Positions 4,600-51,482 are shown, counted from the first letter of the stretch. The stretch is 64,000 nucleotides of DNA from Candidatus Omnitrophota bacterium (GCA_043823005.1 JBDRBG010000013.1:25233-89232), one strand, 5' to 3'. A program made the numbers and translations. The notes: generated by a model not told the origin, from the sequence alone.

Positions 4600-7418
<2,819 letters not shown>

Positions 7419-10901: not shown

Positions 10902-10908
10902 CAGAAAA

Positions 10909-12906: not shown

Positions 12907-12977
12907 GCATTTTCGGCTATGCCAAAAGCCTTGCGCGGAAAAACACTAGAAGGGTAGAGAGGGAGAGCGACCCATAA

Positions 12978-13048: not shown

Positions 13049-13167
13049 GTAAAAGGAAAAAGCTCTTTTAAAAAAGACCAAGCATTTTTCCGGAAACCTT
13101 TTTTTGTGAAGAACTAATAAATTTGACGAAAAAAGGTTTCTGTGCTATAAATAAAAACACATTTTTA

Positions 13168-13244
13168 GGGGTGGTAGTTCAGTTGGCTAGAACGTCGGAC
13201 TGTCGATCCGAAGGTCGCGGGTTCAAGCCCCGTCCGCCCCGCCA
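13168..13244 (+). tRNA. tRNA-Asp (anticodon GTC)
   Basis: GGGGTGGTAGTTCAGTTGG...CTGTCGA anticodon loop...GGGTTCAAGCCCC...CCGCCCCGCCA. Confidence 0.85.
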
Positions 13245-13248
13245 TAAA

Positions 13249-13286
13249 AATAAGGCAGCTTTTTAAAAAGCTGCCTTATTTTTTCA
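13249..13286 (+). terminator. rho-independent terminator after tRNA-Asp
   Basis: Perfect 9-10 bp stem TAAGGCAGC/GCTGCCTTA followed by a T-run. Confidence 0.7.
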
Positions 13287-13365
13287 GAGAGAGAAACAAT
13301 TCAAAGGACTGTTTCGAAATACCCTAAAAGTGTCATGTGTCAAAAGCCAACTTTTGTCTTTGCGA

Positions 13366-13418
13366 GGGAGCGAAGCGACCGCGGCCCTCCTTAGGCGGAT
13401 CCGCCTTTGGCGGACAAT
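13366..13418 (+). repeat. family-1 repeat, long form
   Basis: GTCTTTGCGAGGGAGCGAAGCGACCGCGGCCCTCCTTAGGCGGATCCGCCTTTGGCGGACA. Confidence 0.85.
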
Positions 13419-13675
13419 CCAATAAAAATATAGTTTACCCACAAAATTTATATTTTTATTGCTATTCGAGATTGCTTCGCCCGTTTCATGGGCTCGCAAA
13501 CACATTTTAACTCAGTCCCCTTATTTTCCCCAGTTACTTTTAAGTACACCCTAACAAATTACAATTTTACCCTTTGATTAAATGTTGTTCTTACAGTATA
13601 ATATATTTTAATTAAACCGAAAAAGAAAAAAGTTGCCGGATACCAAGAAAAATAAAATATAAAGAAGGGAGGCGT

Positions 13676-14038
13676 ATGGGAAAAATAATAAGCGGGGCAC
13701 AATATGTGCTAATCCTTTTTATGGTTTTCGCGCTTGTCGGTTGCGGAGTACCCAAAAGTGAACATGAAGTGCTTGAAAAAAAATACGAGCAAGTACAGAC
13801 AGAGATAGAAGCTTTTAACGAACAGGCTAAACAGGTTCAAACTAACAATGACGCGTTAAAAAAGAACGTCGAGGAGCTTAAGACGCAAGTGGCACAGCTT
13901 ACGATGGGGAATAGAAATTTAAAGAGTCAATACGAAAAGGCTTTAAAAGCAAATCAGGAGCTTGAGGCGAAAGCGGCAAATGAAACAGCCAAAAGAATAG
14001 AAGCCGGGAAAAGAACGGCAGATGAGTTAGCGGAATAA
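13676..14038 (+). CDS. coiled-coil lipoprotein, hypothetical
   Basis: Signal peptide plus lipobox (ALVGCG), followed by a Q/K/E-rich heptad region. Confidence 0.5.
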   Translation: MGKIISGAQYVLILFMVFALVGCGVPKSEHEVLEKKYEQVQTEIEAFNEQAKQVQTNNDALKKNVEELKTQVAQLTMGNRNLKSQYEKALKANQELEAKAANETAKRIEAGKRTADELAE

Positions 14039-14067
14039 TTTATTGATAACGGTCTAAATATATACCA

Positions 14068-14106
14068 ACAAAAAAGGAGAAGGCAAACAAAGGCTTCTCC
14101 TTTTTT
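14068..14106. terminator. bidirectional hairpin terminator between convergent genes
   Basis: AAGGAGAAG/CTTCTCCTT stem flanked by an A-run and a T-run. Confidence 0.6.
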
Positions 14107-21000: not shown

Positions 21001-22224
21001 AAAGCTCTCCAAAATTTCACAAAACACGCAAAACAAGAAGGCTATGCTCATATAGTCGGCATATTGCAGGAAGCAGGCGTACATGCGTCCGCAAGACAGT
21101 TATATTGGTTAATAGAACATTTAAAAAGGAACGGGGTGAATAGATTTGTATTAGATCTGGCGACTGACGGTAGAGATGAAGGGGGCAGGGACTCTTTGAT
21201 CAGGATAAAAGAACTTAGAGCCGCTTTAAAATTTTATGGCATACAGGATAAAGATTATGTCTTAAATTTGCGGGGCAGGGAGATCTGTTTTGACAGGGCA
21301 AAGAACTGGAACTTAACAGAAGCATGGATAAATGAACTTGTCTGGGGAAGTAGAATAGATAAAAGCATCGGCGCCGGATATATAACGAAAGAACTGATTT
21401 TAAATAGCTATGAAAAGGGGAAAGAACTCTGGGAAAAAATGATTGAAAAACGCTGGTTAGTAAAGGTTAATGACGAAGAAGCTAAAATACAGGACAAGGA
21501 ATGGAGGGAGGACGGAGATTTCGGAGGAGGACTTGATGAATACAAAAACTCTATAGAAGGTATTTTAAAACAGTCCAGATTCAAAAAACTGCTGGATAAC
21601 GAAGGGATCGTTGCGAATATCCTGCGTAATGCTTTCAGCGCATTGAACGAGAACCAAGAAAAACAAATATTGGCTTTTGATCTGGAGCTTGGGAATAAAA
21701 AAGCAGGCAGGTTGATAAAACAGCTTGTACAAGCTATTGAAGAAATGAAACAAGACAATATATTAAATAAGATCCTGAAAAACATAGAGATAATCAAAGT
21801 CAATGGAGCGGAGTTAGGTAACAGACTGGATATTTTGACTAAGAGCGAAACGGGCATAAAAAAAGAGAACATTATCATTATAGCGAAAAAGACAAATAAA
21901 AACTATTTTACGGGATATGATAGCGTCTCGACAATAGCGTATATAGATGATTCGGAACTATCGAAAGAAGACCTTCTTCCATTACCCGAAATAACGCTTT
22001 TTGCAATAGCAAAGCATCTGGGGTGGAGTGCGGATAAATTAGAGCATCTATATGCGTGCATTTTAAATGCAGAAAGTGTTAACAGCTTAGCTGAATTTAC
22101 TGAAAAATTCGGAAAAGACAAAACTTCCTTTATTGTAAAGATTATCCCTAAAGCCGTTAGGTTTGATATGCAGGAATTAAAGGAAGTTGTAGATCAAATG
22201 GTCAGGATATTAAAATACGCTTAA
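18031..22224 (+). CDS. large secreted protein with an embedded iPGM-like / alkaline-phosphatase-superfamily metalloenzyme domain
   Basis: 1397 aa with a signal peptide. The segment from about 19870 to 20400 has NLDGPDLIGHVAG, LVGDHGS and KPTEMTGKSLL, matching iPGM C-terminal motifs (PDMVGH, ADHG, PAEMTGKSL). Confidence 0.7.
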   Translation: MFKKVLVLVVSFLLISQNIPCFSSPISAHSQQNVQITTLFNLADQEDAYTVALAKYFFVFLDKLDTTLQGADFKNVEKLIKARVEQFQDGAKTLIKHERETKKGIVEKNLPMIKVDESAGELLVIMSDYIVRYYNPKTSKKDQILGEETFKEYSYKVSEEDDINGRLRKQILQRGKEPVLVKLLMEMQDKKERDVTIDEIAQLLLSRNEQEYVLSLMLYILNAIEEVGEDFVDDKVNRIYEQADNIIKTVEKKLLDTKDIKKKIKNESNIREMYRHNYPFIRRKADVDGNLNEIVIHVGEYALRYYNGQTAYAKYELEDPEDSKNAEPVFYSAVQEGPVDGALRVQLLKVEDDADASPAETPIISAVNARNEQNKSNYPSDIKREDPYLFFRLRELRMPIYSQKDDTYYVWDNDSVEKVVKMRHDMGDNDEKLPPVIQIDEMGNVKDRVKEETPLYDINFRADRQKQWVGVILEKSLTPFKVAYQILKAVLVVTTQYLPIVNSENVILEKTKVENGLVEVLTREGIYVKYVFDAEKGKFIPAFRGGQEEPFDKELEDLEFGSISMPVLMTEEQCNKHDPAVKMRLKDKYIGWFYGDVPKGLKQIPNKEYRKYPGLSMFVLARATATKIREAKEGTFGLTNLDGPDLIGHVAGKDVEKITDLFVETEEGKFELKQGNGWDCVLECLKIADAGLNLMMKEVEDKEGVFILVGDHGSVDDMRFPNHSANDVPIFIIDYENEDIKLVKSTGSQKDTQADVAVTILHVLGIDKPTEMTGKSLLPEDYKGRKDRIVWQVILDGFGHTDLDPEQNAFLRAREKGITPTIKKLYDMKNYVLLKAAGMYAGLRGGWVEEIYEMNQQAKKEGGVQYDPLKRKAMITQLESTQDNYWKKIKIVNYDYRDIPQAQLLCSYENGLDILKRSSLLQDKMFLVNYDQEHFMTKDIPDRTVEVVCLDLRQIGSTEYNTWTLGAGRIVEQSIRRIDKRWLNGTMLKSKALQNFTKHAKQEGYAHIVGILQEAGVHASARQLYWLIEHLKRNGVNRFVLDLATDGRDEGGRDSLIRIKELRAALKFYGIQDKDYVLNLRGREICFDRAKNWNLTEAWINELVWGSRIDKSIGAGYITKELILNSYEKGKELWEKMIEKRWLVKVNDEEAKIQDKEWREDGDFGGGLDEYKNSIEGILKQSRFKKLLDNEGIVANILRNAFSALNENQEKQILAFDLELGNKKAGRLIKQLVQAIEEMKQDNILNKILKNIEIIKVNGAELGNRLDILTKSETGIKKENIIIIAKKTNKNYFTGYDSVSTIAYIDDSELSKEDLLPLPEITLFAIAKHLGWSADKLEHLYACILNAESVNSLAEFTEKFGKDKTSFIVKIIPKAVRFDMQELKEVVDQMVRILKYA

Positions 22225-35170: not shown

Positions 35171-35261
35171 ACAAAAAATTAGTTCAGAGGGACACCCCAG
35201 GGATTGAAATTGGGACAGGTCTGGGATTAATTTCAGAACCGTCCCTGATTTCCGCTCTTCT

Positions 35262-35337
35262 GTCTTTGCGAGGGAGCAAGTGTGATTGCGTCAATTCTCC
35301 GTCTTCGCGAGGAGCGTGAGCGACGCGGCAAACTCGG
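35262..35337 (+). repeat. two tandem family-1 repeats, the first degenerate
   Basis: GTCTTTGCGAGGGAGCAAGTGTGATTGCGTCAATTCTC followed by CGTCTTCGCGAGGAGCGTGAGCGACGCGGCAAACTCGG. Confidence 0.75.
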
Positions 35338-35686
35338 ATAGAAATAGAATAAAAAGAAAAAATAAACCACAGAGAGCACAGAGGCACAGAGGGGGAAATA
35401 AGGCGCCTTTGGCGCCGTTCACGGGTCAAGGGTGAAGGGAAAGCGCTTCATCCGTCATTGGAGGAGTGTAGATATTAGGGACGGTTCTGAATTTGAACCT
35501 ACACCTGTCCCAAAATTAATCCCACACCTGTCCCCTAACCGTCGAAAGTTGGGTTTTGAATGGCTCTGTGACTCAGAGGCTCTGTGGTGAAAAATCTGGA
35601 AATCGGTCTTTAAAAAAGTGAATCGTCGTTAGTGAATGGTGAATAGTGAGATTGCCGCGGTCGCTCGTGCTCCCTCGCAAAGACAG
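35338..35686 (+). repeat. upstream flank block of the giant gene: modules Y (CACAGAG-rich), Z and X (CTCTGTGACTCAGAG-containing), then an inverted family-1 copy
   Basis: Shares long stretches with 50840-51072, for example ...AGAAATAGAATAAA..AGAAAAAA..CAGAGAGCACAGAG.CACAGAGGGGG and TTGGGTTTTGAAT.GCTCTGTGACTCAGAG.CTCTGTGG.GAAAAATCTGGAAATCGGTCTTTAAAAAAG. Confidence 0.75.
35648..35686 (-). repeat. family-1 repeat, inverted orientation
   Basis: GAGATTGCCGCGGTCGCTCGTGCTCCCTCGCAAAGACAG. Confidence 0.85.
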
Positions 35687-35707
35687 AAAAGGAGGAATGA
35701 CCCATTT

Positions 35708-35820: not shown

Positions 35821-35850
35821 TTAGACTAACTAGCTTTTCCGTGATATAAT
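35821..35850 (+). promoter_or_regulatory. candidate promoter of the giant gene
   Basis: TTAGAC, an 18-nt spacer, then TATAAT, located 75 nt upstream of the ATG at 35926. Confidence 0.35.
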
Positions 35851-35925: not shown

Positions 35926-38900
35926 ATGATACGACATCAAACAAAATACAAATTCTGGATAAAAAGTATCACAATAGCTGTTTTATGTTTGTTTGTGGTA
36001 AATGATTTTGTGTTCGCGATTAATACTATTAAGGAACGAATGCCAAAATATACATTAGCGCCTGTTTCGCGGCTTAGCCCTATGGTGACAATCACAGGAA
36101 CAGGCAAGGACTTGTCTATTGTCGAAGAATTTTCTGACATATCTAATTTAGCCGAAGAATTTAAAAAAGACATTAGTTTTTCTTATATAACGCAGTTAAT
36201 CTCCCAGGTATTAACTGATTATGGCGTTAAAATTACTGCTCAAGGATTAATAAAACTTATCAGTCAGGATCTTGCTCATATTGATTTTAAAAAATACAGA
36301 TTTGACGGATTGTATCAGGATGAAGAGGTTTTTTATCTTCCCTGTTGTCTAAGCTGTATGGGAAAAGAATGGGAAAACAAGATTTACCTCAGGTATTATC
36401 CTAAAAAATATAAACCCCAAGGATCTTTTGATGAATATAAAGTTTTAAAAACGATTGATCTGAAAAGCGAAGAAATTATTTGTGAAGTATGTTGTTTGAA
36501 AAAAGATAATCCTGAGATATTGCAGAAGTTTGTTCTTGAAAACCCGCAGAAAAAACCCGAAGACAAGAAAAACGACATGATAGATACGCGTCCTGTTAAA
36601 GCTAACCTTCTTCACGAACTATACGTCGAACATGACATGGCAGTTAAAGAGATTATAAATCTTGAAAACAAACTATTAACAGCTGTATATGGCGGAGCAG
36701 GAGCAGATATATCGAATTTTTTATTGTCTACTAACGCGCAAAAAGGATATTTTATTTCACAATATAAAAACTTTTGGTCAGAACTATCAGCACAAGACCT
36801 GAAAGAATGTTTCGAGTCTCTCAGTGCAGAAGCATATATAAAAAAATATTGCAGTAAATGGTACTCTAAAAGTAAATATCATGATGGTTATGGAACTGCC
36901 GCGTTTATCTGGACTAATTGGCAGATAATAGCAGCGCTGGCTTTAGAGCTAAAAGCAATAGGAGTTGATCTAAGCACAGTTAAAGTGATCAAAGAAAAAG
37001 GATGTCCTGCAATACAATTTAAATGGAATTATTCCGGGGCAGAAGAAAAAGAATATAAAATAATTTTTGTAAATGCGGATATAACACGTCCTGAAGAATA
37101 TCAAGACATATTAAAGGACGAGAAAATAGACATTTATTATCAGCGCGCAGGGCTTGAAATCGCAAAAAATTATAAGAAGAAAACGAAAAGTTTTATTAAT
37201 TTTATTAACCAATGCATGAGAAAAGATGGATATTATGTTACAGATGATAATATCTGGTCTTCATTTTGGTTTATAAAGGCTAAGACTCCGCCTTTTCCAG
37301 TGAAAGCTAAAGAAATAAAAACCCCCAGAATTATAGACATGGACAAAAAGGTCCTAAAATTACGGAAGTGGTGTTTTCTGGCAGCAGATAATATTAAGGC
37401 TTATGGAGTTTGCGTAAATATCAGAAAAAAGCTTGATACGGAAAACGAACAAGATATTAATAATAATATCGATCAGCGCCTAGTTAAAGCCGGTCTTCTC
37501 CACGAACTATATGTCGAACATGATATGGCGGTTAAGGAAATAGTCAACCCGGACAATAAACCCTTAACAGTAGTATATGGCGGAGCAGGAGCTGATATAT
37601 CAAATTTTCTTTTGTCTACAAACGCTATAAAAGCTTTTTTTGTGGATAAAGTAGAAATTGATATTGAAAGAATACAAAAGCTTAAATATGAAAGCTGGGA
37701 CAAGCTAGAGCAACTTATAGAACAGGTTAAAACAGAAGAAGGAGAATCTTACAGGGCGTATAAAGAACGGTTTGGGTATGGGATTACTTGGGGAGAAACA
37801 GAAGAAGAAAAAAAGGATCTGGAACTTCTTATTCTTTTTGAATTAAAAGCCATAGGAGTTAATAAAAACTCGATCAGGATCAGAAACAATAAAGGCTTTC
37901 CGGAGATCAAGTTCAAGTGGACTTATTTAAATGGTGTTCAAAAACAATATTCGATTACATTTATTAATACTGCTATTGATGAACCGGAAAAATACCCAAA
38001 ATTATTACAAGATGTCTTAAAGAAAAAAATAGATATTTATTATCAGAGAGCAGGTAATTATATTGCTTCTAATTATGAAAAATTCCTTCCTTTGATAGCA
38101 TCAAAATTAAAAGCGGGAGGATTTTTAATTACAGATGACTTTTTGCCTATTGGGACCAGCGGATCTTTTTTGAAAAAACTCGTACAAAAGCATTTAAAAG
38201 ATATGTATATAGCTAATCCAGATTTGCTTTTGGCAGATAAAGAGCGGTCAATTTTTACTCAAAAAGATGAAATGAAAAATGACAGGATAAAACAAGCGGA
38301 GAGAAAAATCATAGAAGATAGACAACGTTATGTAAAGGATAGCAGCGGCAATTTTTCCCACTATGGCTGGGATGTTCATTTGCGCCAAAAAATAAGGTCT
38401 GTGAATACTGTCAAACCGCCTCCGGGGACGCCTGCTACGTTATTAAAATATATGTATGATAACAAAATATTTAAGGATAACGCGAAAACAGCTATGGATA
38501 TGGCAGGGCAAAGAGGCGGCAAAGATAGCCTTTCTACAATATATTATGAACTAAACGTTTTAAGAAGAGTTGGTTTAGCGATAAAATCCGGGACAAGGTA
38601 TTATTTGCGGGAGGAGGCCATAGAGATGCTTCCGGAGACAATAATAAATGAAAACCCTGAATTAAATATTGCTTACCCTTCGGAACAAGAGAAAACCAGG
38701 ATGAAAGAGCGGCTCAAAACCGGGTTTTCTCCAAAGACAAAAATTGATTTTTTGCGAAACCAGGGTTTTATCGGGCCGAAAGATATTATGAACGAATTTG
38801 GCAGGAAAAGAAAAAAAGGAGAACAGCAGTTTTTATGGGACGATGTGACGGATCCTGCAAAACTTTTTATGATAAATAAACTTGCCGGAAGTTTTGGGAT

Positions 38901-41900
38901 ACAGCCGGGAGAATTAACCGTGGGCCATTTCATGAAGAATAGGGAAGTTTTTAACGGCAAAAACATTCGAAGTCTTATTAACTGGTTTGATGCAAAATCC
39001 GGATGTAACGGCAGTTATAAGGAAGCATTAAAAAAACTGAAACAATATTTTAAAATACAAGATTTAATAGACAGGCAAATTCAAACAAGTGAACTTTTGC
39101 GTTTAATAAGACAAGGAAGAGCAAAAGAGGGAATAAATATATGGGAAAGAAGCATAAAATCGGCAAAATTATTTGTTCTTCAAATAGTTTCCGCAAAGAG
39201 AAGAAAGAAGATAGAACAGTTAAATGTTTATGATATTAGGGGCGGATTAGCCTGTTTTAAAGGCAACGGTGTTTCAGGGATCATCGATTGGGCGATGCGG
39301 AAGTTTTACTGCAAAAACAGCAGTGGAGTAGGAGTTCACCGTTTGAAAAAGTATTTAGGCAAACAAGACAAGGTTCCTCCGCATCCGGTATTATGTTTAT
39401 TTTGTACGGATTGGGAAGAGGCGATTAAGTCCGGAGTATTGTCATGCAAGACGTTAGCCGAAGAAGTAAGAGCCGTAGATTTAAAGGTAAGAGAATCTTT
39501 TAACGGAGAGGATGAACCGCATTATAATGCCGAATATTTTTCAACTGTAAGAATATTAGAAAAAAAAGATTTTATATTGCCTGTTTTAAAACAATGGAGT
39601 GGAGCCAAAAACAAGATTGGGATTGAAAGCCTTATGCGGATATATTGCCGGCAAATAAGGCCCATATTATATGGGCTCGATGAAAAGAAAAAATCAGGTT
39701 GTGATAGTATTGATGTTCCATCCCGGAATCTTGTTTCGGAAAAGCCGGTTCCTGATAAGCAAGAAAACAAAATAATTTTTAGAGGAATCGGCAAAAATGA
39801 AGATATGGATTATACGAATCTTTTCAGGGATCTGGATGCGGAAACCAGGGCCTTAGGCTGGCCTTTAGCGCGCAGACAAAGATATTTAACCCTTTTAGCT
39901 TCTATTAATAGCCTTGAAAGTAGAATGAAAGAGCTGACAGAGCGGGAATTACAGGCAAAAACAAAGGAATTTAAGGCGAGATTAGATTTAGAAGAAACAC
40001 TTGACGATCTTTTACCCGAAGCTTTTGCTGTTGTCAGGGAAACCGCGCGGCGCGTAATAAACGAAAGGCCGCATGATATACAAATTCTGGCCGGTATAGC
40101 TATGCATGAAGCTAAAGGAATAGAAATGGATTCCAGCCAGGGCAAAACTTTGACCGCGATGATGCCGGCTTATTTAAATGCTTTGACAGAACGGGGAGTG
40201 CAAATACATACGACTAACAATTATTTAGCTAAAAGAGACGCCGATTATATCGGTCGGATTTTTGACTTTTTGGGCCTAACCAGCGGAGCTATTACTTCAA
40301 AAGGATCTTTTTTGTTTAAAAAAGAAGGTAATCCGCGGACAACAAGTAAAATAAGAAACCTTTGCGTATTACCGCACAAAAATCAGGAGGAAATCAGGGT
40401 TTCTAAAAGAAGGATATATAATACTGATGTTGTGTATGGTTGGGCGAGAGAAATAGTTTTTGATAAGCTTAAGGATGACCTGGCTGACGGAAGGGGCAAT
40501 CTGGTTCAAAGAAACCTTGCTCCGGAGCTTATTATTGTGGATGAAGCAGACAGCCTTTTAATTGATGAGAATAAAGACATGTTGGTTTTAGCCGCGCAAA
40601 ATAAGAACTTTTTTGAGAGAAGATTTTTTGAATTAATATATGACTTTTCCGGCCGTTATATTCCGAAAATAGATTACAGCGTCGATATATACGAAAGAAC
40701 AGTATCTTTAACAGGAACAGGGAAAGTTTTGATCGAAGAGCTGTTATTGGAATCTCCGGCGCTTAAAAAAATAGACAGAGAGTATCTTGTTCTATTAATG
40801 GAAAAAGCCCTGGAAATACAGTTTTACGCGAAGGATGAAGATTATACTGTATGTTCGGGGAAAAAAGTTGTTATTGTTGATAAGTATAGCGGCAGGTTAA
40901 AAGACGGAAATGTCTGGGAACATGGGGTACAGCAATTTATAGAAAAACAGGAAAAGACTGTTTTACATGAGATGATCTTTTCGGTGCATGAGATGACGTA
41001 TAAAAACTATTATGGGCATCAGGAGAAAATAGCTCCTATGAGCGCTACTCTTTTGAGCGAGGAAGAAGAAATATCAGCTAATTATGGAGTAGAAATAGTA
41101 AAGATGCCTTTGCGAGTAGAGTCAAGACGCGAAAATTTGTATCCTTTAGTTTTTTTAACAAAAGAAGAAAAAAGGGCCGCTATATGTAAAGATGTTCTAG
41201 CTATGCAAAAGAAAAGGCGTCCTGTTCTGATCGGGGTGTCAACTATCAGGGAAGCTGAGAATATAAAAAAAATATTGAATAAAGCGGGTATTTTTCCGGA
41301 AATTCTGGACGGTAGGAACGAAACGATTGAAAGCAGTATTATAGAACGAGCCGGACAGTGTTCGGGCGTAACTATAGTTACACCGGCCGGAGCAAGAGGA
41401 GTGCATATACGGCTTGGGCAAGGTGTTTCTGCGCGCGGCGGTTTGCATGCAATAGGAGGGGTTTTTTATGAGAACAAGAGAATGGAGGATCAATTTAATA
41501 AACGCGCGGCCAGAGGCGGAGACCCCGGAAGTTCAAGAAATTATATATCGTTAGATGAAGAGAATATACGGATTTTTGGAGGAGATGACAGAAAAAAACT
41601 AAAACAAGCCCTGAAAAACCTTGAACAATTGGGCCTTTCACAGGAAGAAGCGATTTTATCTTCTGAAGGCAGAGAAATAATAAGAAATATTCAACATTTG
41701 CTCGGCAGGATTCGTAAGCGGCAGGAAGATTACGTCAGGCGGTCAAGAGAACGATTTTTAAAATATGATGATATTATAGATCCTTTTAGGGAATGTTTTT
41801 TCTCTTTTCGCCGAAGCATTCTTGAACTTGAGGATGAGGGGGAAAGAAGAAAAACATTAAAACTGATTGATGATTTATGGATACGATGTCAATTGGATTT

Positions 41901-44900
41901 AAGCAGGTTAAAGGGCCGGGTAGATATAAAAAAATATGAAAAAATAGTAAATATGAAATTTGACAAAATAGCGGATTGTATTAAAAATAATTGTAAAATA
42001 ATTCCCGCCCCAAAACAAAATATTCCGGGCGGTGAAAATATCGAGCTGATGGAACAAATGGCTTTTAGTCCGGAAACACAAAACATATATATCCATAAAA
42101 ACTCGATTTTAATAAAAGAATATGAATTTATGTTCGAAGCAGGAGAAAAACAATTAAAAGAGCAGGTTCTCTTAATAAGCGATTTTATGGGCGGAAACAT
42201 CCCAAAGATCAACTTGATGGAACTCATCAAAAGAAAACAGGAAAGGATTGAAAAAGCGATAATAGCCAGGGCAATACTGCAGACTGAAAGCGACAGAGAG
42301 ACAGCAGAACTTTTGAATTGTGAAGAACGGTTTGGTTATAATAAAAGAAAACAATACGGATGGGACAGAAAGGAATGGCATAAAATAATAGAATATTCCG
42401 AGGGTGTACCGTATGTTCCGTTTTTGGGAATAGATCTAAAAAAAATATTAAAGGAAGTACGGGAAACGCTCGGACAGTATTTAGTTAAAGGGGCGCTTTT
42501 TTGGACAACCGGCGACAAAACAAAAGCCCTGGAAAAACTGGGAGTAAATATTGATACAGGAAAGGAGATAACGGAGTTATTGGCAAAATACAGGGGAGAT
42601 AAGCAATATGTCGCGCAAAAATTACATATAACAAAAAATCAACTGAATTTATGTCTTCAGGAAACAAAAGAAGTTTTAGGGTGGCTAGAAGATGTGTGCG
42701 CGTTGGAAGTGCCTGAAGAACCAAAAACCTGTGTATTTGAGGATATTCGGGGATATTCTTATCAAAATGATTTGAAATGCGGATTTATCCAATCAAAAAC
42801 AGGAAAAGCGCCTGAAGCACTGGGGAAAATACGCAAAGAACAAAGAGAAAAGCTTTCGCCGGTCAATATTCCGGATTCCGAAGATCTTGTAAATTATATT
42901 CAAACAAAAATAGATCTATTTCCTCAAAGCTTTTTGCAAACAAATTTACCTGAATGGATAACGATGCAGGTTTCTGTTTGCCGCAGAGAATTCAATGGAG
43001 CTCTTGAAAGGATCAAAAATAATAAAATATTTTCTTTCAAAGCCTTGATATATGACGATGAAGATTATGCTTTAGGATACGGGGATGAGGAAGAAATAGG
43101 GATAGCAGAAGAACTTTTAGGTTTAGAAAAACCTCTTTTAGCCGAATATCTTTTTCATGAAGCAATTTGTTTTAAGGTGGGACATAAAAAGGCAAGAGAA
43201 TTGCAGAGTTTTCTTTTCCCTGAAAACTATAGCACAACAGACGCCGGCATTCGAAAAAGTAAATTACAGGAAGAGCTTCGAGCCGTTATAAAGAAGAAGG
43301 TAGATTCAAAAGAGCCGGAATCAAAAAAAGAAGAAGCAGATGCTTTGGAAGAAAAGGGCATAGAACAAGAAGAAAAATTTACAGGAATACGATTTTTAAA
43401 AGACAGAATTCTTATAATAAAGAAAGATTTCAGGTTTTCATTACAGACTCCGCGCGTTAAAGACGCGTTATCTCGTATGCATAATTTTATGCGCAAAAAA
43501 CTTCCCTCTATTGACATGAATCAATTGATAAAAAAGATAAAGGAAGAAATAGAAAAACCATTAATTGCCGGAGCTTTTGTTCAAACAAAAGGAAAGAAAT
43601 GCCAGGCTATAGAATTACTTGATATGTATTCGGCAGAATTTCACAATAAATTTCAAAAGTACAATTTCTTGGATACTGAACTTTTGCGGGAATATGCTAA
43701 AAACGTTCCCGTAATCCCGGCTGAAGGAATAGAGTTAAAAAAAATAATCAAAGAGGCAGTTAATAAATTAGAGAAACATTTAATTGTCAGGACATTGAAG
43801 CAGACAAAGGGACATAGAAGCGAAACAGCTAAACGGTTAAAAGTTTCTCTGGCCGGATTGTGGTATAAAATAAATCAGCTTTTTGAAGAGAACGACGGCA
43901 TTTCTAAAGTTTCAACAGGGACTAAAAGGAGAGAGGATATGCCTGTGGATACAGAGCCGGCAATAGAGGTGTCAGACAGCCTTAGTGGCGATAAATTAGA
44001 AGCAGGTGGGCAGGTAGAGGATGTTGTTACATCAAAAAAGCCTGCTTGGGCCGGGTTCAAAGGGCTTTCGCTCAAAGAAATGGATGAAATAATAGCTATC
44101 ATAAATAGGAACGCACATCTAAAACAAGCCGCGGCTAAACTCGGAATGTCGCATTACAAGCTTGGAACAAAGATACAAGAAATAAGAGAGAGCGCTTTAG
44201 TCCGGGAAGATAAAAGGCGTATCGAGAGCCTGGACAGGGCTTTAGTATTTTTGCCGAGTTATACTAATAGGTTATTAAACGCGTTAAAAAAGACAAACGG
44301 GAATCAAACAATGGCAGCGCAAAGATTGGGACAGCAGCCCGCGTATATCAGTATGATGCTAAAAACAGCAAAAAAAGCCATTATTAACAAGGGCAACGGT
44401 TATTTGTTTGCGAAATATGATCAGTTGCCGGTTTCTAAGCGCGGAAAAGGAAGAAAGAAAAAAGAAGAAGGCATAATGCCGCATATCAATAAAGCTGAGG
44501 CAATAGTGGAAACAACAACTACAGAAGATAACATTCCGGAAGAAAAAATTGAACCAAAAACAATAGAAAATCTGAGAGATGCAGGAGAACTTCATAGCGA
44601 TACAGAAGAGACAAAAGATAGAGAAGCCGTAATTGATGCGGCGATAGAGGAAATAACAACTACAGAAGATAATAGTCTGAAAGAAAATATTGAACCAAAA
44701 ACTGATGTTCAAGAAACAGAAGAAATGCAAGAGACACAAACAATTGCAGAACCTGTTTTGCAGGAAGAAGAACAAGTTCAAGTAGAAGATATAGAACTGC
44801 CGGAAAATAAAGAAATCTTACAGAAAGTAAAAGACCTTGGATGGGATAACAAAACAATTGTGAGGTATTTGGGACAGCTGAACAGGATTAATGAATTAGA

Positions 44901-47900
44901 AAAAGACATACAAGCTTTGTCTGACAAAGAACTGGCGCTAAAAACGCAAGAGTTCAAATTAAAATTAAAAGACAAAACGACACTTGATGATATTTTACTC
45001 GAAGCTTTTGCTGTTGTCAGGGAAACTGCCTGGCGTGTAATCGGCAAAAAACCTTATGATGAACAAATATTAGCCGGGATCGCTATACACGAAGGCAAAG
45101 CAGTGGAAATGATATCAGGCGAAGGCAAGACTTTAGCCGCAATTATGCCCGCGTATTTAAATGCGTTAACGGAAAAAGGCGTACATATACATACAGTTAA
45201 TGATTATTTAGCTAAAAGAGACGCAAATCTTATGGGACAGGTGTTTGATTTTCTTGGATTACGGACAGGGGTCATTGTGCAGGGTAAATCATATTTATTT
45301 GATAAACAACTTAAGCGTACAAGAGAAGAAGATTTTAATTTTCTTAGACAATCCAACAGGGCTATCATGATGACCAAAAAAGACGCGTATGAGGCAGATA
45401 TCGTATACGGATATAACAGGGAACTGGCGTTTGATCATTTACGCGATAATTTAATACATAAAGCAACCGCGAGAGTGAACGGAAGATCTCCGGTGCTTAC
45501 AATTGTGGACGAAGGAGACAGCATCTTAATCGATGAAAATATAGAACCTTTAGTAATATCCATACCTAGGACAGATAATCTTTTAAAATATATATTTAGA
45601 GAGGTTTATAAGTTTTCCAAGAACTTGGTTTATGGAATAGACTACGAAATAAATAGTTTAGAAAAAATAGCTATTTTAACCGAAAAAGGGAAAGAACGGA
45701 TTAAAGACTATATAAAGGAGAATCAGTACTTAAGCAATATGGATATTTATTTATTAATTGATTTTACGGAAAACGCGATAGCAAGTGAACTGTATGTGAA
45801 AGATGTAGATTATGTGGTAGAAAAAAACAATGCCGGCGAACAAGAAATAGTTGCTTATGATGAAATTTCGGGAAAATTAAAATCTCAAAGTGTATGGGAA
45901 AAGGGATTACAGCAGTTTATTGAATTAAAAGAAGACTGCATTCTTACAGCTGTCTCACCTGTTGTAATAGCGATCTGTTATAAGAATTATTATTCTAAAA
46001 TGGAGAAGCTATCCGCGATGAGCGGAACCTTTGAATCCGTGGCCCAGGAAGCAAAGAAATATTACGGTTTAGAATTTTTGAAAATACCTATGCGTAATGA
46101 ATCTCAGAGAAAAGACTTGCCTGATATTATTGTAGCCACTGATAAAGAAAAGTGGACTCTGATAATAAATGATATTTGCGAAAAATACACAAAAGGACAG
46201 CCAGTTTATGTTGGGACGAGGAGCATAAAAGAAGCAAAGTGGCTGAAGGAACAAGTACAAAAGAAAGGGATTCATGCTAATGTTTTTGACGGACTGGATC
46301 CTCGCAATGAAGAAAGAATAATCGGGGATGCCGGCCGGCCCGGGGCTGTAACGATTACAACGCAAATAGGAGGAAGAGGCGTAGACATTGAAGTTCCGGG
46401 TGTTTCGGTGCGAAGAGGAGGGTTGTATGTGATAGGATCTGGTTTGTATAAAGATAAACGGGTAAAAGGCCAGTTGAGATTTCGGACAGGAAGAAACGGA
46501 CAGGTTGGGAGCACGGTATTTTATGTTTCTTTAGAGGAAGAAGATATTGTTTTGTTCGGAGAAGAAGAGCTCATTAACCTCAAGAAGGAAGTAGATTCTT
46601 TGACAAAAATGAGCAGAAAAGAAAGAACAGGGCGGGATGATGTCCGAAGGGATATTTTGAAAAAACAAATAAAACAGAGGGTGGAAACGATCCAAAAACA
46701 GATGCAAGAATATAGGTTTAATATGCGGGAATATGCAATTCAAATAGACGATAGACTAGATTATAAAAGACGATTTTTTTATTGTATGAAAAACATGAAT
46801 AGTCAACGGCATAATTCAGACAAGGGTTTGATAAGATTAAATAGTTTATGGGCATCTTATTTTAGTAATATATGGCCAACAAGAAACAGGATTTCAAAAG
46901 CAAAAAATATACAGGAAGACATTTTTGATAAAGGATTTCAACAAATGATTAGAAAAATAAAACAGGTCCCTTCTTTATATGAAGAACTATGGGATGTAAA
47001 TGTTCCTTCTGGTTTTTATGATTTATTAAAAGATATCAATCGGGAACAGAAAACTCAGGAAATAGGTATTTTTGAAAAAGGAGAGAGAGAGTTTGATTTA
47101 ATAAATAAAACGTGCGGATTTAAATTTAGTATCGGGCAAAGCGGTTATGGTAACACCGTCGAATTATTAAAAAATCGTATGCATGGGATAAAACTACGGG
47201 ATTTCATAACCGCGATAACTCAGGAAACTGAGAAGTTTTTAATATTAAAAGGTTTAGCAGAAACCGGCGGGAAGAAAGAATCGGTTGCAAAATTATTAAA
47301 AATGGGCATTAATACTTTAACTGATCGAATCCAAAAATATCACTTAGAAAAAAGTGAAAGTTTAAAGAAAAATATTAGAAATAACGCAGGCCTTTTGTTT
47401 GAAAATAAACATTTTTATCAAAGGGTTAAATCGATAGTTGAGGAATCTGAAAATTGTCTGATAATGTGTGTTTTAAGAGAACAGGATTTTGATGTAAAAA
47501 AAACAGCTAAAATATTAGATGTCAGTTTAGGGTATATCATTTTTAAAGTTTTAGAGATAAATGCAAAAATAGAGTTTAAAAAAAACCTTTATTGTGACAT
47601 GACAGAAAAGACAGAAGAAGAGAATGAGGAAATGCCTGTTGTGTCCGGTTCGTTTTCACAAAAAGACGTGGCGTATAAGATAGTTATCCAAAACAACGGA
47701 CTTAATATAGAGGGAAAAGATTTTAATATGACAATCTCAACGCCGCGAATAAAACAGTGTTTGCTTTCAATCGCAAATTTTGCAAAAGGGAGGGAAGCTC
47801 AAATAAATTTAATGGAAATAAAAGAGGAAATAGGGAATGAATTAATGAAGAGTATTTTTTGCAAAACTAAAGAGAACAACATGCATAGTTTTGATATTGC

Positions 47901-50718
47901 TCAATTAACGGAAGAAGAAGGAAATGAATTAAAAAGAAGAATAGAGATAGACGGCTTAAGTTCTTTGCAAGGGGCAAAAGAATACACAAGAAATGTGTTT
48001 GTGGTGTTTAAAGGGAAAATAGATCTTTTAGGGCGGAAAGAAGATATAACAACTGCTATAGAAAAATATGTGATTGTGCAAGCTCTTAAGATGGCGCAGG
48101 GTGAAAAAGAATTAGCGGCGCGAAAACTTCTTATTCCGGAAACTGTGCTGTATCCCAAAATAGAACAAATTATGACACCAGGGACTCTGGATAAAACAAC
48201 TGTTAGTATTGAATATGATTTTACGGATCCGGAATTATTTAAAGAAGCTAAGGAAAGAGAAAATTTAGCTATTGAAAGGCAGATCCGGGATTTTTCAAAA
48301 GGGGAAAAAGATACTATTGATTTAAACGAACTCAAGGGATTAATGAAAAGGGAAATAAATTTTGCAATGGTTTCCTGGGCATTGAAACAATCAGGAGGAA
48401 ACAAGGCTAAAGCGGCGGAATTATTAGGTGTTAGCAAAAGGACGTTGTGGAACAAAACAGAAGAGCAGAATCTGGGGTATGCGGATATACAGGAACTAGA
48501 CGCGGTAAGAGCCGTAGAGACATCTGATAAGACTATAACATTAATTGAAAGGGTGCGCAAAACTAACCAAAAACTGGAGGAATATTTGATGGTCCAGGCA
48601 TTAATATTGACAAAAGGAAACAAACAAGAGGCAGCACGTAAATTAGGGATTTCAAGACGTACTTTGTATGACTATTTAGAACGGAGTAACAAGAGAGAAG
48701 ACTATGCCCCAAAAAGCTTTTGCTGTATGAAACAAGATATCGAGTTAGACAAACTTCTAAAAGAGATTAGATGCTATTTTAGGGCGCGAGAACAAGAAGA
48801 ACTTTTAGTTGATTCTAATATGTTGAAAAAAGAATGGCTGAAGGAAGAAAAAATGGAAGAGAGTGTAGCTTTTTTCTTATCTTTTTTTTCTGAAGGAATG
48901 GTAGATATTGTTAATGAGATCAGACAATTTGAAATGAACGCAATAGAGAATATTGATTTGACAAAACTAATACAAAGAATAGCAAACGAAATAGAAGCGA
49001 TGATAATTTCTGAAATATTACATAAAACAAAAGGTCATAGAACTAAAACAGCAGAATTGTTAGAAGTGAGCAGAAGGACGCTTTATGAGAGGATGGAACA
49101 ATGCAAACTGCTTTATCCTGAAAGAACAGCACAATACGCGGAAAAAGCGAAATGGGGCAAAGATGTTCATGTTAAGTTAAAAGATGTGCGGGCAAAGATC
49201 GATGACAAAATGAAAGAATATTTAAGCAGAGTTGCTTTGTTGAAAACCAAAAGGAATCGCACAGCAGCGGCGTGTTGTCTAGGGATTTCCAAACGTACTT
49301 TATATGACTATTTAATTGAAATAAACAGTGCAAGAGGCGACAAAGAGTATTCATTAGCATTTGTTAAAGAATTCAAGAGTTTACCCGTACTGCTAGAAGA
49401 AATCTTACAATGTTTGACGAAACCTTGTTCGCTTGAAAAGAATATATTCCGGGAAGAAATGGATAGCCTTGTCGGCCATGCAAAACCAGAAAAAAAAGAC
49501 ATACTTACTATAGACGAAGCCTATCAATATGTTGCTAAAGCAACAGAAAATATTGATACGGACAAGTCAATGGCTATAACAGAAGAGATTTTAAAGTACC
49601 CAATAAACGATATTTTGGTTGTGGGCACAGGTTTGATCGGGATGTCGTTTTTATTGGCGCTTATGGATAAACAAGTGACTTTTGTGGATCCTTGCGTGGA
49701 CAAGGTCCGGGATATGGAGCGATGGGCTCAAGCAATAGAGCAACAGACAGGACAACCCCTAAACATACAATTTGTTTGCGCATCAATCGATGAAATTAAT
49801 GAACAAAAGTATGATCTTATTACTTTGATTGATTTTGAAGAAAACGCATTAGGTGTCGAATTTGACAAAGCATTATCAAAGGCTCGGGAAATTCTTCGCG
49901 AAAGAGCATATCTTGTAATAGATAGTAACTATAACGGAAAGGGAATAAAAGTTCTAGAGGATTATTTTAAGACCTGGCAAATGTCCGGTAACAATAAGTT
50001 TTATGAGGGGAGAATCTCTAAGTATGCAAAGAACCGGATTGTTTTAGTCGAAAATCCGGAGGTAGCAGAACCAGAGAAAGAGATATTTGAGCAAGAGCAA
50101 AACAGTGCAGGAAAAGATTTTTTTGATGAACTGATTATTCAAGCAATTAAGGCAAAGCGACGCAGAGAAAAAATATTGATAGCTATTGATATAAGCTGGA
50201 TCCCTGAGATGCATCAATCTTTTATGCAGGGGGTTTTAAATCAATTGGCGCGGATATACAGAAAAAAAGGCCTGGATAATGTTTTAATACATAGAAGGCC
50301 TGACGCGGAAAGGACGATAAAGATGATAAAAGACACAATTTTTTATGAAGATATTAAACTATCAAATGTTATAGCTGTTACAGGAAAAGAAACAATAGAA
50401 TCCGGATTTTTTAATGAAATAAGAAGCAGTGAAAATGAAAAAAAAGCGCTTTTACTCGGGATCAGCAATAAGGATTTGAACGGAGAAATTGATTTGGAGG
50501 ATATGGTCAATTATATCGGAATTTTAGAAATGCTTACAGGTGCTTTAAAATTAGTTTCTTGTAAAAAAGAACCGGAATCAATCGAAATTCCCGGTGTCGG
50601 AGAATTTAAAAGAATAACACCGCGTACCTGGGTAGTATTTCCCAAAGAACGCAGACTAGTTGAAGAAGTAAAAAAAGAATATAAAACCCAAAAAAAACAC
50701 ATAAAATCCGCCGCATAA
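35926..50718 (+). CDS. giant multidomain protein (4930 aa): TM N-terminus, tandem ~300-aa repeats, two SecA-like ATPase modules, multiple Fis/NtrC-type HTH modules and a C-terminal Rossmann-like domain
   Basis: Uninterrupted 14.8-kb ORF. SecA hallmarks occur twice ([10 protein letters not shown], GxGKTL, [9 protein letters not shown](R/K)GV(Q/H)IHT(T/V)N(N/D)YLAKRDA, IVDE(A/G)DS(L/I)LIDE, GGRGVDI/GARGVHI, GDPGSSR-like). There are 12 or more HTH units of the form ...TKGN(K/R)[18 protein letters not shown]. Confidence 0.8.
   Translation: [4930 protein letters not shown]
39880..41830 (+). other. SecA-like motor module 1 within the giant ORF (NBD1, NBD2, helical scaffold-like)
   Basis: [13 protein letters not shown]...[16 protein letters not shown]...[37 protein letters not shown]...[12 protein letters not shown]...[10 protein letters not shown]...[21 protein letters not shown]...[12 protein letters not shown]. 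Confidence 0.75.
44870..46790 (+). other. SecA-like motor module 2 within the giant ORF
   Basis: [17 protein letters not shown]...[16 protein letters not shown]...[37 protein letters not shown]...[12 protein letters not shown]...[11 protein letters not shown]...GGLYVIGSG...[27 protein letters not shown]. Confidence 0.75.
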
Positions 50719-50803
50719 ACCCCGGAAATGGGGACGGTTGTTGTATACGCTCAATAATTTGGTAACATTTTTTAAGGGGGCCTTACTGCTAACTTCGTTT
50801 GTC

Positions 50804-50839
50804 GTCATTGCGAGAAGCAAGAGCGACGCGGCAAACTCG
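50804..50839 (+). repeat. family-1 repeat
   Basis: CGTCATTGCGAGAAGCAAGAGCGACGCGGCAAACTCG. Confidence 0.8.
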
Positions 50840-51072
50840 AATGAAAATAGAATAAAGAAAAAAAATTAACCTCAGAGAGCACAGAGACACAGAGGGGGGA
50901 AACAAACTGAGGCGAGAAGAGGGAAAAAAGATATTGTTGGGTTTTGAATAGCTCTGTGACTCAGAGACTCTGTGGAGAAAAATCTGGAAATCGGTCTTTA
51001 AAAAAGCGAATAGTAGTTGGTGCATAGTGGAAAGAGATTGCCGCGGTCGCTCAAGCTCCCTCGCAAAGACGG
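50840..51072 (+). repeat. downstream flank block of the giant gene, homologous to 35338-35686
   Basis: Modules Y and X and an inverted family-1 copy occur in the same order as upstream. Confidence 0.75.
51034..51072 (-). repeat. family-1 repeat, inverted orientation
   Basis: GAGATTGCCGCGGTCGCTCAAGCTCCCTCGCAAAGACGG. Confidence 0.85.
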
Positions 51073-51171
51073 ATGAGGTTCGCTTTCGGACGTGTCCTGC
51101 GCCTGAGCAACGCGAATGGAACAGGGAGATGGCTCCGACTAACGACCCCCGACTAACGACTAACGTGCCGG

Positions 51172-51250
51172 AATGGGGACGTTTCTGAAACTAATCCCAG
51201 ACCCGTCCCAATTTCAATCCCACACCTGTCCCCTAACAGTTGATAGGCAG
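51172..51250 (+). repeat. module Z (AATCCCAGACCCGTCCCAATTTCAATCCCACACCTGTCCCCTAAC)
   Basis: Direct copy of 35463-35550 and inverted copy of 35190-35250. Confidence 0.7.
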
Positions 51251-51358
51251 TTTGTAGATGGTCCTGAAACTGATGCAGTAGATGTCCCTAATATAAAAAT
51301 CACTTGCGTTGTTTAGCGTTATTTGATAGAATCACAGCTTACAAGAATCACATTCTAT

Positions 51359-51433
51359 CGCGGGGTGGAGCAGAGGTAGCTCGTGAGGCTCATAACCTCA
51401 AGGTCGGAGGTTCGATTCCTTCCCCCGCAACCA
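51359..51433 (+). tRNA. initiator tRNA-fMet (anticodon CAT)
   Basis: CGCGGGGTGGAGCAG...GGCTCATAACC...GGTTCGATTCC...CCCCGCAACCA. The C1-A72 mismatch and three G-C pairs in the anticodon stem match bacterial initiator tRNA. Confidence 0.85.
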
Positions 51434-51437
51434 AAAA

Positions 51438-51482
51438 ATAAGGGATTTCAAATATATATTTTTGAAATCCCTTTATTTTTTA
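51438..51482 (+). terminator. rho-independent terminator after tRNA-fMet
   Basis: AGGGATTTCAAA/TTTGAAATCCCT stem followed by a T-run. Confidence 0.7.

Follow-up and report, generated by a model that had tools for sequence, protein, structure and literature searches.

We analysed a 64,000-nucleotide stretch of DNA from Candidatus Omnitrophota bacterium (GCA_043823005.1, JBDRBG010000013.1:25233-89232), referred to below as the window. Its most conspicuous feature is a single open reading frame (ORF) of 4930 amino acids (aa), here called the giant ORF, in which two modules derived from the ATPase SecA are each followed by pairs of Fis-like helix-turn-helix (HTH) units. An earlier sequence-only reading of this DNA had proposed two complete SecA-type motors fused to an array of HTH modules of the NtrC/Fis type. 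We find that the SecA modules have lost specific parts of the canonical protein, that the HTH units are organized as double units, and that a core composed of a signal peptide, a SecA module without its helical wing domain and an array of HTH_8 units recurs in three lineages.

Translation of the window gave zero internal stops in the giant ORF, in agreement with the single uninterrupted frame reported earlier. Since GC content across the ORF is 34–39%, a run of 4930 stop-free codons excludes a chance origin. The product is identical to NCBI MFH1846136.1, encoded on a 90-kb contig of a metagenome-assembled genome (MAG) and named 'MAG: helix-turn-helix domain-containing protein [Candidatus Omnitrophota bacterium]'. 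Codon usage is uniform among seven segments of the ORF (pairwise r 0.80–0.94) and similar to that of eight neighbouring housekeeping genes (r 0.80–0.92). The sequence-only reading had allowed that the two SecA copies might be an assembly artefact of one secA gene, which is not borne out. The copies are 35–56% identical as protein, depending on the segment (38% overall), and at most 72% identical as DNA, and the DNA of the ORF holds no internal direct repeat with more than 78% identity over more than 100 nt. This divergence and the lack of near-identical repeats exclude misassembly of a single secA by collapse or duplication. Additionally, the first module (SecA-1) branches in a neighbour-joining tree outside the pair formed by the second module (SecA-2) and the module of a relative on contig L002 (described below), a position that fits an old duplication within the lineage and does not fit a recent artefact. 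We are highly confident that the giant ORF is one real gene for a 569-kDa Omnitrophota 'long protein', built on a shared chassis and carrying a duplicated supermodule as cargo.

To define the SecA-derived modules, the whole protein was searched against Pfam, which identified SecA_DEAD (3.5e-146, two stretches), P-loop_SecA (7.3e-67) and SecA_PP_bind (1.4e-25, two stretches); NCBIfam agreed. SecA_DEAD and P-loop_SecA were found in both modules, so that the earlier claim of two DEAD-motor cores holds, and the motifs quoted for them are present (DEAD and DEGD; GARGVHI and GGRGVDI; GDPGSSR and NGQVGST). The preprotein cross-linking domain (PPXD) likewise occurs in both, with SecA_PP_bind scores of 52.0 and 46.9 bits against a cut-off of 23.5. 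Relative to T. maritima SecA (3jux), module 1 aligns to residues 12–673 and module 2 to residues 7–661. The motifs of module 1 are partly degenerate (SSQGKT, DEAD, SAT, ARGVHI and FNKRAARGG), and those of module 2 are largely intact (SGEGKT, DEGD, SGT, GGRGVDI and LRFRTGRNG). By its motifs, module 2 looks catalytically competent, and module 1 may be regulatory or weakened.

The architecture of these modules was compared in an alignment of four family modules (SecA-1, SecA-2, and those of the relatives L002 and P0142) with 36 canonical SecAs. Identity between family modules and canonical SecAs is 33–42%, as against 50–62% among the canonical SecAs themselves, and the family modules therefore form long branches outside the canonical cluster. 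SecA-2, L002 and P0142 retain the ATPase motifs, namely Walker A (SGEGKTL), the DExD box (VDEGD), motif III (M(S/T)GT), motif V (G(G/A)RG(V/T)D) and the arginines of motif VI (R-x-(G/A)-R). None of the four family modules keeps the helical wing domain, in whose place there is a gap of approximately 65–110 columns relative to the 36 canonical SecAs. Similarly, all four keep the flanking helices of the two-helix finger with a tip loop that is 7–9 residues shorter and has lost the YGQ..PL motif; the full reference motif of the finger tip, L-R-x-Y-G-Q-x-x-P-L-x-E-Y-K, is absent. The two-helix finger has reportedly been implicated in pushing substrate through the channel, in work from 2008 by Erlandson and colleagues. 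The C-terminal linker and zinc finger are also absent from all four modules in the alignment, and Pfam found no SEC-C match (PF02810) in the giant protein, whereas SEC-C is present in most canonical SecA matches.

Thus, the earlier description of the SecA cores as complete does not stand: wing, finger tip, C-terminal linker and zinc finger are missing, and copy 1 is degraded in its motifs. Of the helical scaffold, whose start had been reported, a three-helix remnant is kept. Owing to the missing wing domain, SecA_SW, the helical scaffold and wing model, scores 18 bits and so stays below its cut-off of 26.7. The NCBIfam model PRK12904 scored 916.7 bits against a cut-off of 814, a figure that sums both modules over four stretches; single modules scored about 330–395 bits against SecAs of the PDB by phmmer. 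The SecA2 models all fell below their cut-offs, again with both modules summed (TIGR03714, 822.7 against 930; TIGR04221, 581 against 725; NF012136, 540 against 1100; TIGR04397, 820 against 1085). The wing domain makes contact with SecY, and special substrates are handled by SecA2 proteins whose wing is reduced and which lack a C-terminal tail (PMC7503281). Judged from sequence, the family modules are SecA-derived, putative ATPase and polypeptide-clamp modules and not complete translocases.

The remainder of the duplicated cargo consists largely of HTH units. Pfam HTH_8 matched in seven stretches (4.7e-58), and its score of 193 bits, far above the gathering score of 22, shows that the match proposed by the sequence-only reading is not spurious. 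An iterated, self-built profile resolved 12 strong units in six pairs, as well as weaker ones, in line with the 'at least a dozen' units claimed before; the two strings quoted as examples lie at aa 2615–2648 and 4220–4254. Within a pair the unit starts are approximately 73 aa apart, and tiled BLAST resolved the repeat as a double unit of approximately 170 aa. The first unit of module 5 aligns to Fis residues 43–93, and module 6 aligns to residues 48–104 of the P. aeruginosa Fis-like protein 6m10 and matches the NCBIfam Fis model PRK00430. The canonical recognition helix S(R/K)RTL(Y/W) is found in four of the 12 units, all in pairs 5 and 6; approximately two further units are partial and the rest are without basic character. 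On this basis it is likely that not all HTH units bind DNA, and those that have no basic recognition helix are probably structural.

The fold of a pair was predicted by running AlphaFold2 on pair 2 (aa 2482–2657) with an eight-row alignment of the pairs. The model forms one compact unit (pLDDT, the predicted local distance difference test score, 92.3; pTM, the predicted template-modelling score, 0.85) with three short strands, helices A (28–41), B (50–72), C (77–84) and D (88–97), a short helix and then B'-C'-D'. In full-length Fis, helix A spans residues 27–42, B 50–70, C 74–81 and D 85–94. In the spacing of its secondary structure, the first half of the model thus matches full-length Fis. 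Each pair is accordingly predicted, from the model of pair 2, to fold as one compact Fis-like unit, and from pTM alone we infer a covalent intramolecular pseudo-dimer.

The association of these units with sigma-54 enhancer-binding proteins, suggested in the sequence-only reading, does not extend beyond the HTH. No Sigma54_activat match (PF00158) was found at E<=0.1 in the whole protein or at E<=1 per segment, and the NtrC-type matches in NCBIfam cover just the last 40–60 residues of those models. An identity as a sigma-54 activator was rejected, as the protein has no AAA+ domain.

Relatives of the whole architecture are rare. A scan of genome contigs returned a single one, on JBDRNE010000040.1 (L002) from a second Omnitrophota MAG, where positions 720–7211 encode a complete protein of 2163 aa with one SecA module. 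This relative is collinear with aa 1–213 and 2903–4930 of the giant ORF at 43% identity over approximately 2000 residues, and its SecA module is 58% identical to module 2. A third assembly contributes P0022, a near-identical fragment. The collinear relative and P0022 indicate that the backbone has been under long-term conservation, in the order signal peptide, N-domain, SecA, HTH pairs, methyltransferase-like domain and C-domain. In the L002 contig, the region 3' of the relative (7429–14089) encodes a small HTH_17 and PilZ protein and a 2039-aa SNF2-family helicase protein that matches the PADLOC models ZorD, DpdE and DrmD at the level of the helicase domain only; this neighbourhood is not shared with the window.

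An exhaustive phmmer search of the C-terminal array (aa 3700–4480) against 1.84 billion representative proteins gave only 18 matches at E<=1e-3. Besides the protein itself, these were P0022, P0142, small proteins with tandem HTH_8 and one sigma-54 activator carrying extra HTH_8 copies. P0142 is a complete protein of 1423 aa from an ENA metagenome, on chromosomal-looking contigs. It begins with the signal-peptide-like MVMFRKDYNLKIVTLLTAILFSVNNIAYG followed by ID, and continues with one wingless SecA and eight HTH_8 units (by the self-built profile), most of which are net basic. A homologue search with P0142 revealed no further protein combining SecA and HTH_8 among its top 120 matches, and no relative was found in scans of JGI metagenome contigs (with the post-SecA region and with the N-domain) or in one scan of viral contigs. 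Across the three lineages that share the core, the SecA modules are 33–58% identical and the gene neighbourhoods all differ; with three different neighbourhoods, the protein appears self-contained. An integrase-core (rve_3) gene on L003 (14232–15371, − strand) lies on the strand opposite to the P0142 gene and overlaps its 3' end, which hints at a mobile element beside this compact family member.

The giant ORF also sits on a chassis that it shares with other long proteins: a cleavable-type Sec signal peptide, an N-domain of approximately 180 aa, divergent domains of the S-adenosylmethionine (SAM)-methyltransferase fold and a conserved C-domain of approximately 230 aa. None of the signal peptide, the three methyltransferase-fold domains, the pairwise order of the HTH units and the shared chassis had been included in the sequence-only reading, whose architecture was to that extent incomplete. 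The N-terminus has a positively charged n-region, a 12-residue hydrophobic core (SITIAVLCLFVV) and the c-region NDFVFA, followed by I. Together with one Rossmann strand, this N-terminal segment is the only strongly hydrophobic stretch of the giant ORF in a Kyte-Doolittle scan. Manual inspection of the N-termini, by which signal peptides were assigned in all relatives, showed a single layout in the giant ORF, L002, P0142, P0002, P0003 and P0011: a positive start, a hydrophobic core of 12–13 residues and six polar residues that close with small residues at −3 and −1 (VFA, TSA, AYG, SYA, SYA and SQA, respectively). As read from these termini, the common layout is that of a textbook cleavable Sec signal peptide.

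Our whole-protein homologue search gave 21 matches whose sole common ground with the giant ORF is the chassis domains; as canonical SecAs were crowded out of this search, the SecA module was searched separately. Twenty of the proteins (P0002–P0021; 2813–7647 aa) come from Omnitrophota and one Elusimicrobia MAG and carry one to four copies of the A-domain each. The N-termini of many resemble signal peptides and have a polar c-region, for instance (Q/N)D(V/F)xxA. Most end in a small residue (...AA, ...SA or ...A), and this conserved C-terminal ending may be a sorting or processing signal. Besides the A-domain they contain, among others, phosphorylase, amylase, hexokinase, PPDK, sigma-70 regions, HEAT repeats and SNF2. 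The A-domains are predicted to adopt a Rossmann-like methyltransferase fold. They had no Pfam match, and a profile search of the PDB gave a weak NovP match and nothing significant. Their G-G-x-G-x-D motif and D-x-YYQRA vary little or not at all, and the acidic residue of motif II is not conserved. The later Rossmann-like domain matched Methyltransf_25 (19.7 bits) and Methyltransf_12 (18.2 bits) below threshold. Proteins with the C-domain terminate in ...I(K/R/S)(T/S)AA or similar; the C-domain itself had neither a Pfam match, searched with an alignment, nor a sequence match in the PDB.

Coordinates of all features are collected in Table 1. Within the module at aa 2353–2452 lies ...LAEYLFHEAICFKVGHKKARELQ.... 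Directly ahead of SecA module 2, a 66-nt unit occurs in two copies (44496–44702; 86% identical and 141 nt apart) that encode the acidic linker motif (A/E)I(V/E)E(T/I)TTTEDN...E(K/N)IEPKT.

Table 1. Features of the giant ORF and its upstream region, with positions counted from the first nucleotide of the window.
Feature	Residues (aa)	Position (nt)	Strand	Remarks
Promoter-like site, TAGACT-17 nt-TATAAT with TG extension		35822..35850	+	consensus pattern match only; ~75 nt upstream of ATG
Giant ORF	1-4930	35926..50718	+	569 kDa, pI 8.6; ATG start, stop codon included
Sec-type signal-peptide-like N-terminus	1-31	35926..36018	+	hydrophobicity and layout
N-domain	37-213	36034..36564	+	no Pfam match; common to L002 ORF (53% identity), P0002, P0003, P0011
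A-domain copy 1	216-510	36571..37455	+	divergent class I SAM-methyltransferase fold (predicted)
A-domain copy 2	512-830	37459..38415	+	30-43% identical to copy 1, 64-aa core at 75%; profile match
Uncharacterised region	831-1300	38416..39825	+	weak internal repeat, weak P0002 match; no Pfam match at E<=1 beyond noise
SecA-derived module 1	1301-2045	39826..42060	+	NBD1 and NBD2 (nucleotide-binding domains), PPXD, three-helix scaffold remnant; Pfam
Fis-like double-HTH module 1	2048-2220	42067..42585	+	both recognition helices degenerate
~100-aa module	2353-2452	42982..43281	+	BLASTP 33-40% identity to segments of P0002, P0003, P0016, P0018; no Pfam match
Fis-like double-HTH module 2	2482-2657	43369..43896	+	structure predicted
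Linker	2658-2950	43897..44775	+	weaker HTH-like units near aa 2715-2760 and 2783-2804 (HTH_1-like match); acidic stretch
SecA-derived module 2	2951-3700	44776..47025	+	NBD1, PPXD, NBD2, three-helix scaffold; Pfam
Fis-like double-HTH module 3	3708-3880	47047..47565	+	self-built profile
Fis-like double-HTH module 4	3912-4087	47659..48186	+	first unit degenerate
Fis-like double-HTH module 5	4084-4259	48175..48702	+	canonical recognition helices SKRTLW, SRRTLY
Fis-like double-HTH module 6	4296-4470	48811..49335	+	canonical recognition helices SRRTLY, SKRTLY
Putative Rossmann/SAM-methyltransferase-like domain	~4540-4700	49543..50025	+	motif VVGTGLIG...VTFVD; kept in L002 ORF
C-domain	4701-4930	50026..50715	+	common to L002 ORF, P0002, P0003, P0011

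The window begins with dnaA (1838–3244), dnaN (3447–4550), gyrB (4962–7418) and gyrA (7408–9915). After a negative start over the first 2 kb, GC skew is positive across the remaining 62 kb, nearly all genes lie on the + strand, and the replication origin is probably located at or just before the start of the window. The giant ORF lies approximately 34 kb from dnaA and this probable origin, on the leading strand and co-oriented with replication. Its neighbours are housekeeping genes (Rnf, purN, eno, pfkB, purB/M/D and glyA), with no secretion, pilus or injection genes among them. A phage or plasmid origin was rejected in view of this chromosomal housekeeping context near dnaA, and a known defence system was rejected as PADLOC matches occur at the HTH level only.

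Upstream of the giant ORF, a 755-bp intergenic region contains nested imperfect inverted repeats (35189–35698), with one pair of 73-nt arms that are 74% complementary (35189–35261 and 35462–35534) and one pair of 48-nt arms that are 79% complementary (35248–35295 and 35651–35698). The same region carries a 22-nt direct repeat ending in CACCTGTCCC. The inverted repeats could be a MITE-like remnant (miniature inverted-repeat transposable element) or a structured regulatory element; Rfam, run over the window, matched tRNAs only and gave no match in them. Downstream, 50719–51358 holds no ORF of at least 100 aa, and a tRNA-Met (CAT) follows 640 nt after the giant ORF (51359–51480, including a hairpin). 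This hairpin, directly after the tRNA, has a 13-bp stem and T-runs on both strands and looks like a bidirectional terminator; between the giant ORF and this point there is no other clear terminator hairpin. Elsewhere in the window, an ORF of 1397 aa (18031–22224, + strand) starts with the signal-peptide-like VFKKVLVLVVSFLLISQNIPCFSS... and contains domains of cofactor-independent phosphoglycerate mutase (iPGM_N and Metalloenzyme). It has no similarity to the giant ORF and is the second case here of a secretion-type leader on a cytoplasm-type enzyme.

The giant protein sharpens a paradox common to this whole class of proteins, as a textbook signal peptide stands ahead of recognisable domains that all need ATP, SAM or DNA. 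Either the protein is exported and acts in another cell, or the N-terminal signal targets it to the membrane or translocon without full export. Our preferred reading, which we hold tentatively, is that clamp-type SecA modules and Fis-like DNA binders together make a DNA-tethered ATPase scaffold at the inner membrane. Having lost what links housekeeping SecA to the SecY channel, the modules would not serve as the general translocase; they would instead act as ATP-driven polypeptide clamps, uncoupled from SecY pushing. The double-HTH modules, at least modules 5 and 6, would bind or bend DNA as pseudo-dimers. Such a protein might follow the logic of enhancer-binding proteins, which join an ATPase motor to HTH_8, except that its motor would be of the SecA type and not AAA+. 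It would act where ATP, SAM and DNA coexist, for which we favour the cytoplasmic face of the producer's inner membrane, and the signal peptide and SecA modules may interact in cis at or near the Sec translocon, as in the self-handling idea of West-Roberts.

Several observations weigh against a membrane-proximal, DNA-tethered scaffold. The signal peptide is conserved and no further transmembrane segment was found, which predicts export of the whole chain; the ATPase, methyltransferase and DNA-binding domains would then end up beyond the producer's cytoplasm, in conflict with action at the cytoplasmic face. The signal peptide fits export equally well as it fits that location. Additionally, Walker A and motif V of module 1 depart from the canonical form, a basic recognition helix is missing from six to eight of the 12 HTH units, and the geometry of the HTH pairs is deduced from pTM. 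There are no conserved neighbours to hint at partners. Finally, aa 214–2902 (2690 aa) are unique to this assembly, so that the arrangement with two SecA modules rests on a single assembly; this middle section comprises the two A-domains, the uncharacterised region, SecA-1, HTH pairs 1 and 2 and the linkers.

The most serious competitor, which we nevertheless consider unlikely, is that the protein is an exported effector. Its signal peptide would be cleaved and the 4900-aa chain exported, with its ATPase, methyltransferase-fold and DNA-binding modules at work within a prey or host cell or on the lysate of one. There the poly-Fis array would serve to coat or compact foreign DNA, and nascent or secretory proteins of the prey, or its SecYEG, would be the targets of the SecA modules. 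This is consistent with a textbook signal-peptide layout kept in all three SecA-HTH lineages and in the chassis relatives, with no other transmembrane segment. A 2026 survey reads long proteins with a signal peptide only ('SP-only', 9% of 916) as secreted (10.64898/2026.06.07.730766), and Omnitrophota giants have been linked to predation (bioRxiv 10.1101/2023.11.21.568195). Moreover, ATP, SAM and DNA are absent from the periplasm, which leaves the cytoplasm of another cell as the only sensible external site. Arguing the other way, the neighbourhood of the gene is one of housekeeping functions with no delivery system, and no route is known in the phylum that would deliver a 569-kDa protein into the cytoplasm of prey. 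Pfam identified no toxin, adhesin or cell-wall-degrading domain, and the signal-peptide call was made by manual inspection. A bolder version, to which we assign a low probability, is that the core of signal peptide, wingless SecA and Fis array constitutes a new effector class that leaves the cell through the Sec pathway, whose array seizes the foreign nucleoid and whose clamps and methyltransferase folds use the victim's ATP and SAM, for example in engaging its translocon or its nascent secretory proteins. If true, this would be the first SecA-derived motor used as a weapon and not as a housekeeping exporter, and it would explain why signal peptides and cytoplasm-type enzymes are combined in many Omnitrophota long proteins.

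We give little credence to pure self-export, in which the SecA modules help to thread their own chain through SecYEG and the HTH_8 units, without a role at DNA, serve as degenerate spacers or protein-protein scaffolds. SecA-like domains have been proposed to export the giant protein itself (bioRxiv 10.1101/2023.11.21.568195); over the three lineages there is approximately one SecA module per 1400–2500 aa, and the many HTH units that have no basic recognition helix suit a spacer role. However, the modules lack the finger tip and wing that contact SecY, and no SecA module can be its own exporter. That SecA is followed by an HTH_8 array in three lineages whose SecA modules are only 33–58% identical argues for a selected functional coupling, and four units keep the full NtrC-type DNA-recognition motif.

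Less credible still is a regulator of transcription that reports the state of secretion, or a tether between nucleoid and membrane. Here SecA would sense preproteins or dock at the translocon while the HTH array binds the chromosome, as a one-component system or a 'transertion anchor' coupling gene expression or nucleoid position to the membrane. An ATPase joined to HTH_8 does parallel enhancer-binding proteins, and the sigma-54 activator P0146 has extra tandem HTH_8. The gene lies close to dnaA and co-oriented with replication, and it needs no partner genes, standing alone in three different contexts. For a regulator, however, 4930 aa, three methyltransferase folds and a cleavable signal peptide are superfluous, no target sites were identified, and proximity to dnaA comes from one locus only. 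Lastly, we regard as highly improbable an artefact (a chimera of two long-protein genes, a misassembled secA duplication, or ordinary genes fused by sequencing errors), which is suggested by the MAG source and by the single SecA module of the only close relative and is contradicted by the divergence of the two copies, the lack of repeats able to mislead an assembler, the unbroken 14.8-kb frame, uniform codon usage and GC that match the adjacent housekeeping genes, and the position of SecA-1 in the tree.

The sequence-only reading knew of no described architecture that fuses SecA motors to repeated HTH modules. For the HTH fusion this is supported, as a full-text literature search found no paper with both 'SecA' and 'HTH_8', and the two papers on Omnitrophota giant proteins make no mention of HTH, Fis or PF02954 (10.1101/2023.11.21.568195; 10.64898/2026.06.07.730766). 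For SecA itself it needs amending, since SecA-derived modules in Omnitrophota giant proteins are already published. What is new is the recurrence of the core in the giant ORF, the 2163-aa L002 protein and the 1423-aa P0142, the predicted compact fold of each HTH pair, the placement of the gene on a shared chassis of signal peptide, N-domain, divergent methyltransferase folds and C-domain, and the finding that, beyond the matches listed at E<=1e-3, no other such array occurs among the 1.84 billion proteins searched.

Omnitrophota long and giant proteins are recognised and functionally blank, and the recurrent clue so far has been a divergent SecA-like domain thought to aid self-export. The present family adds a SecA-derived motor that is stably coupled to Fis-type arrays and stripped of its SecY-touching parts, a fusion unexpected for specialists in protein export and in nucleoid proteins alike. 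Its smallest version, P0142, is experimentally tractable, and resolving where the protein is located would tell exported effectors from membrane-proximal cytoplasmic machines.

Among known systems, the closest are the published Omnitrophota giants (West-Roberts 2023). In these, SecA_DEAD and preprotein-binding domains without scaffold or wing are common and are proposed to serve self-export (bioRxiv 10.1101/2023.11.21.568195), and an architecture cluster of 20 proteins with PF07517 has been described in the phylum (10.64898/2026.06.07.730766). The giant ORF shares with them the phylum, SecA_DEAD with a preprotein-binding domain, the missing wing, divergence of SecA, methyltransferase domains and a signal peptide. 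In contrast to those proteins of more than 30,000 aa with numerous transmembrane helices, it has 4930 aa and no such helix beyond the signal peptide (Kyte-Doolittle); by Pfam it is without carbohydrate, adhesion, dockerin or peptidase domains; its neighbours are housekeeping genes and not genes for type II secretion or sugar import; and it keeps three scaffold helices and carries Fis-type HTH arrays.

Compared with housekeeping SecA (T. maritima 3DIN/3JUX and B. subtilis 1M6N), the modules align over approximately 650 residues of NBD1, PPXD, NBD2 and the long scaffold helix at 33–42% identity, and the aligned span takes in the N-terminal helix region and most of the helicase motifs. They differ in being embedded, twice, in a giant chain, in not conserving the 'DEARTPL' segment, and in lacking the wing, the C-terminal linker, the zinc finger and 7–9 residues of the finger tip. 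A reduced or absent wing and scaffold and the lack of a C-terminal tail are instead shared with SecA2 (M. tuberculosis 4UAQ) and with secondary SecA_DEAD proteins of the Planctomycetes-Verrucomicrobia-Chlamydiae (PVC) group (PMC4452313), which are likewise divergent SecA paralogues beside a presumed housekeeping SecA. Those proteins, however, are free-standing, approximately 600–800 aa long and none is fused to HTH_8; SecA2 still works with SecYEG, and the PVC secondary proteins adjoin type I secretion-like genes.

On the HTH side, small tandem-HTH_8 proteins and the sigma-54 activator P0146 with its extra HTH_8 copies (P0144–P0151) resemble the array in having 2–4 units per chain, and their best matches span one pair of the query. 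They are 100–850 aa long, have no SecA or signal peptide and at most four units, and match weakly (E 1e-7 to 1e-4). Sigma-54 enhancer-binding proteins differ from the giant ORF by their AAA+ domain. With Fis and the C-terminal DNA-binding domain of NtrC-family enhancer-binding proteins (HTH_8; 1ETK, 6M10, 4L5E and 4FTH) the units share a profile match and the fold of helices B, C and D, and the first unit of each pair also resembles full-length Fis in its N-terminal beta arm and helix A. Whereas Fis and NtrC domains are homodimers of separate chains, the giant ORF fuses two such units in one chain, and does so six times.

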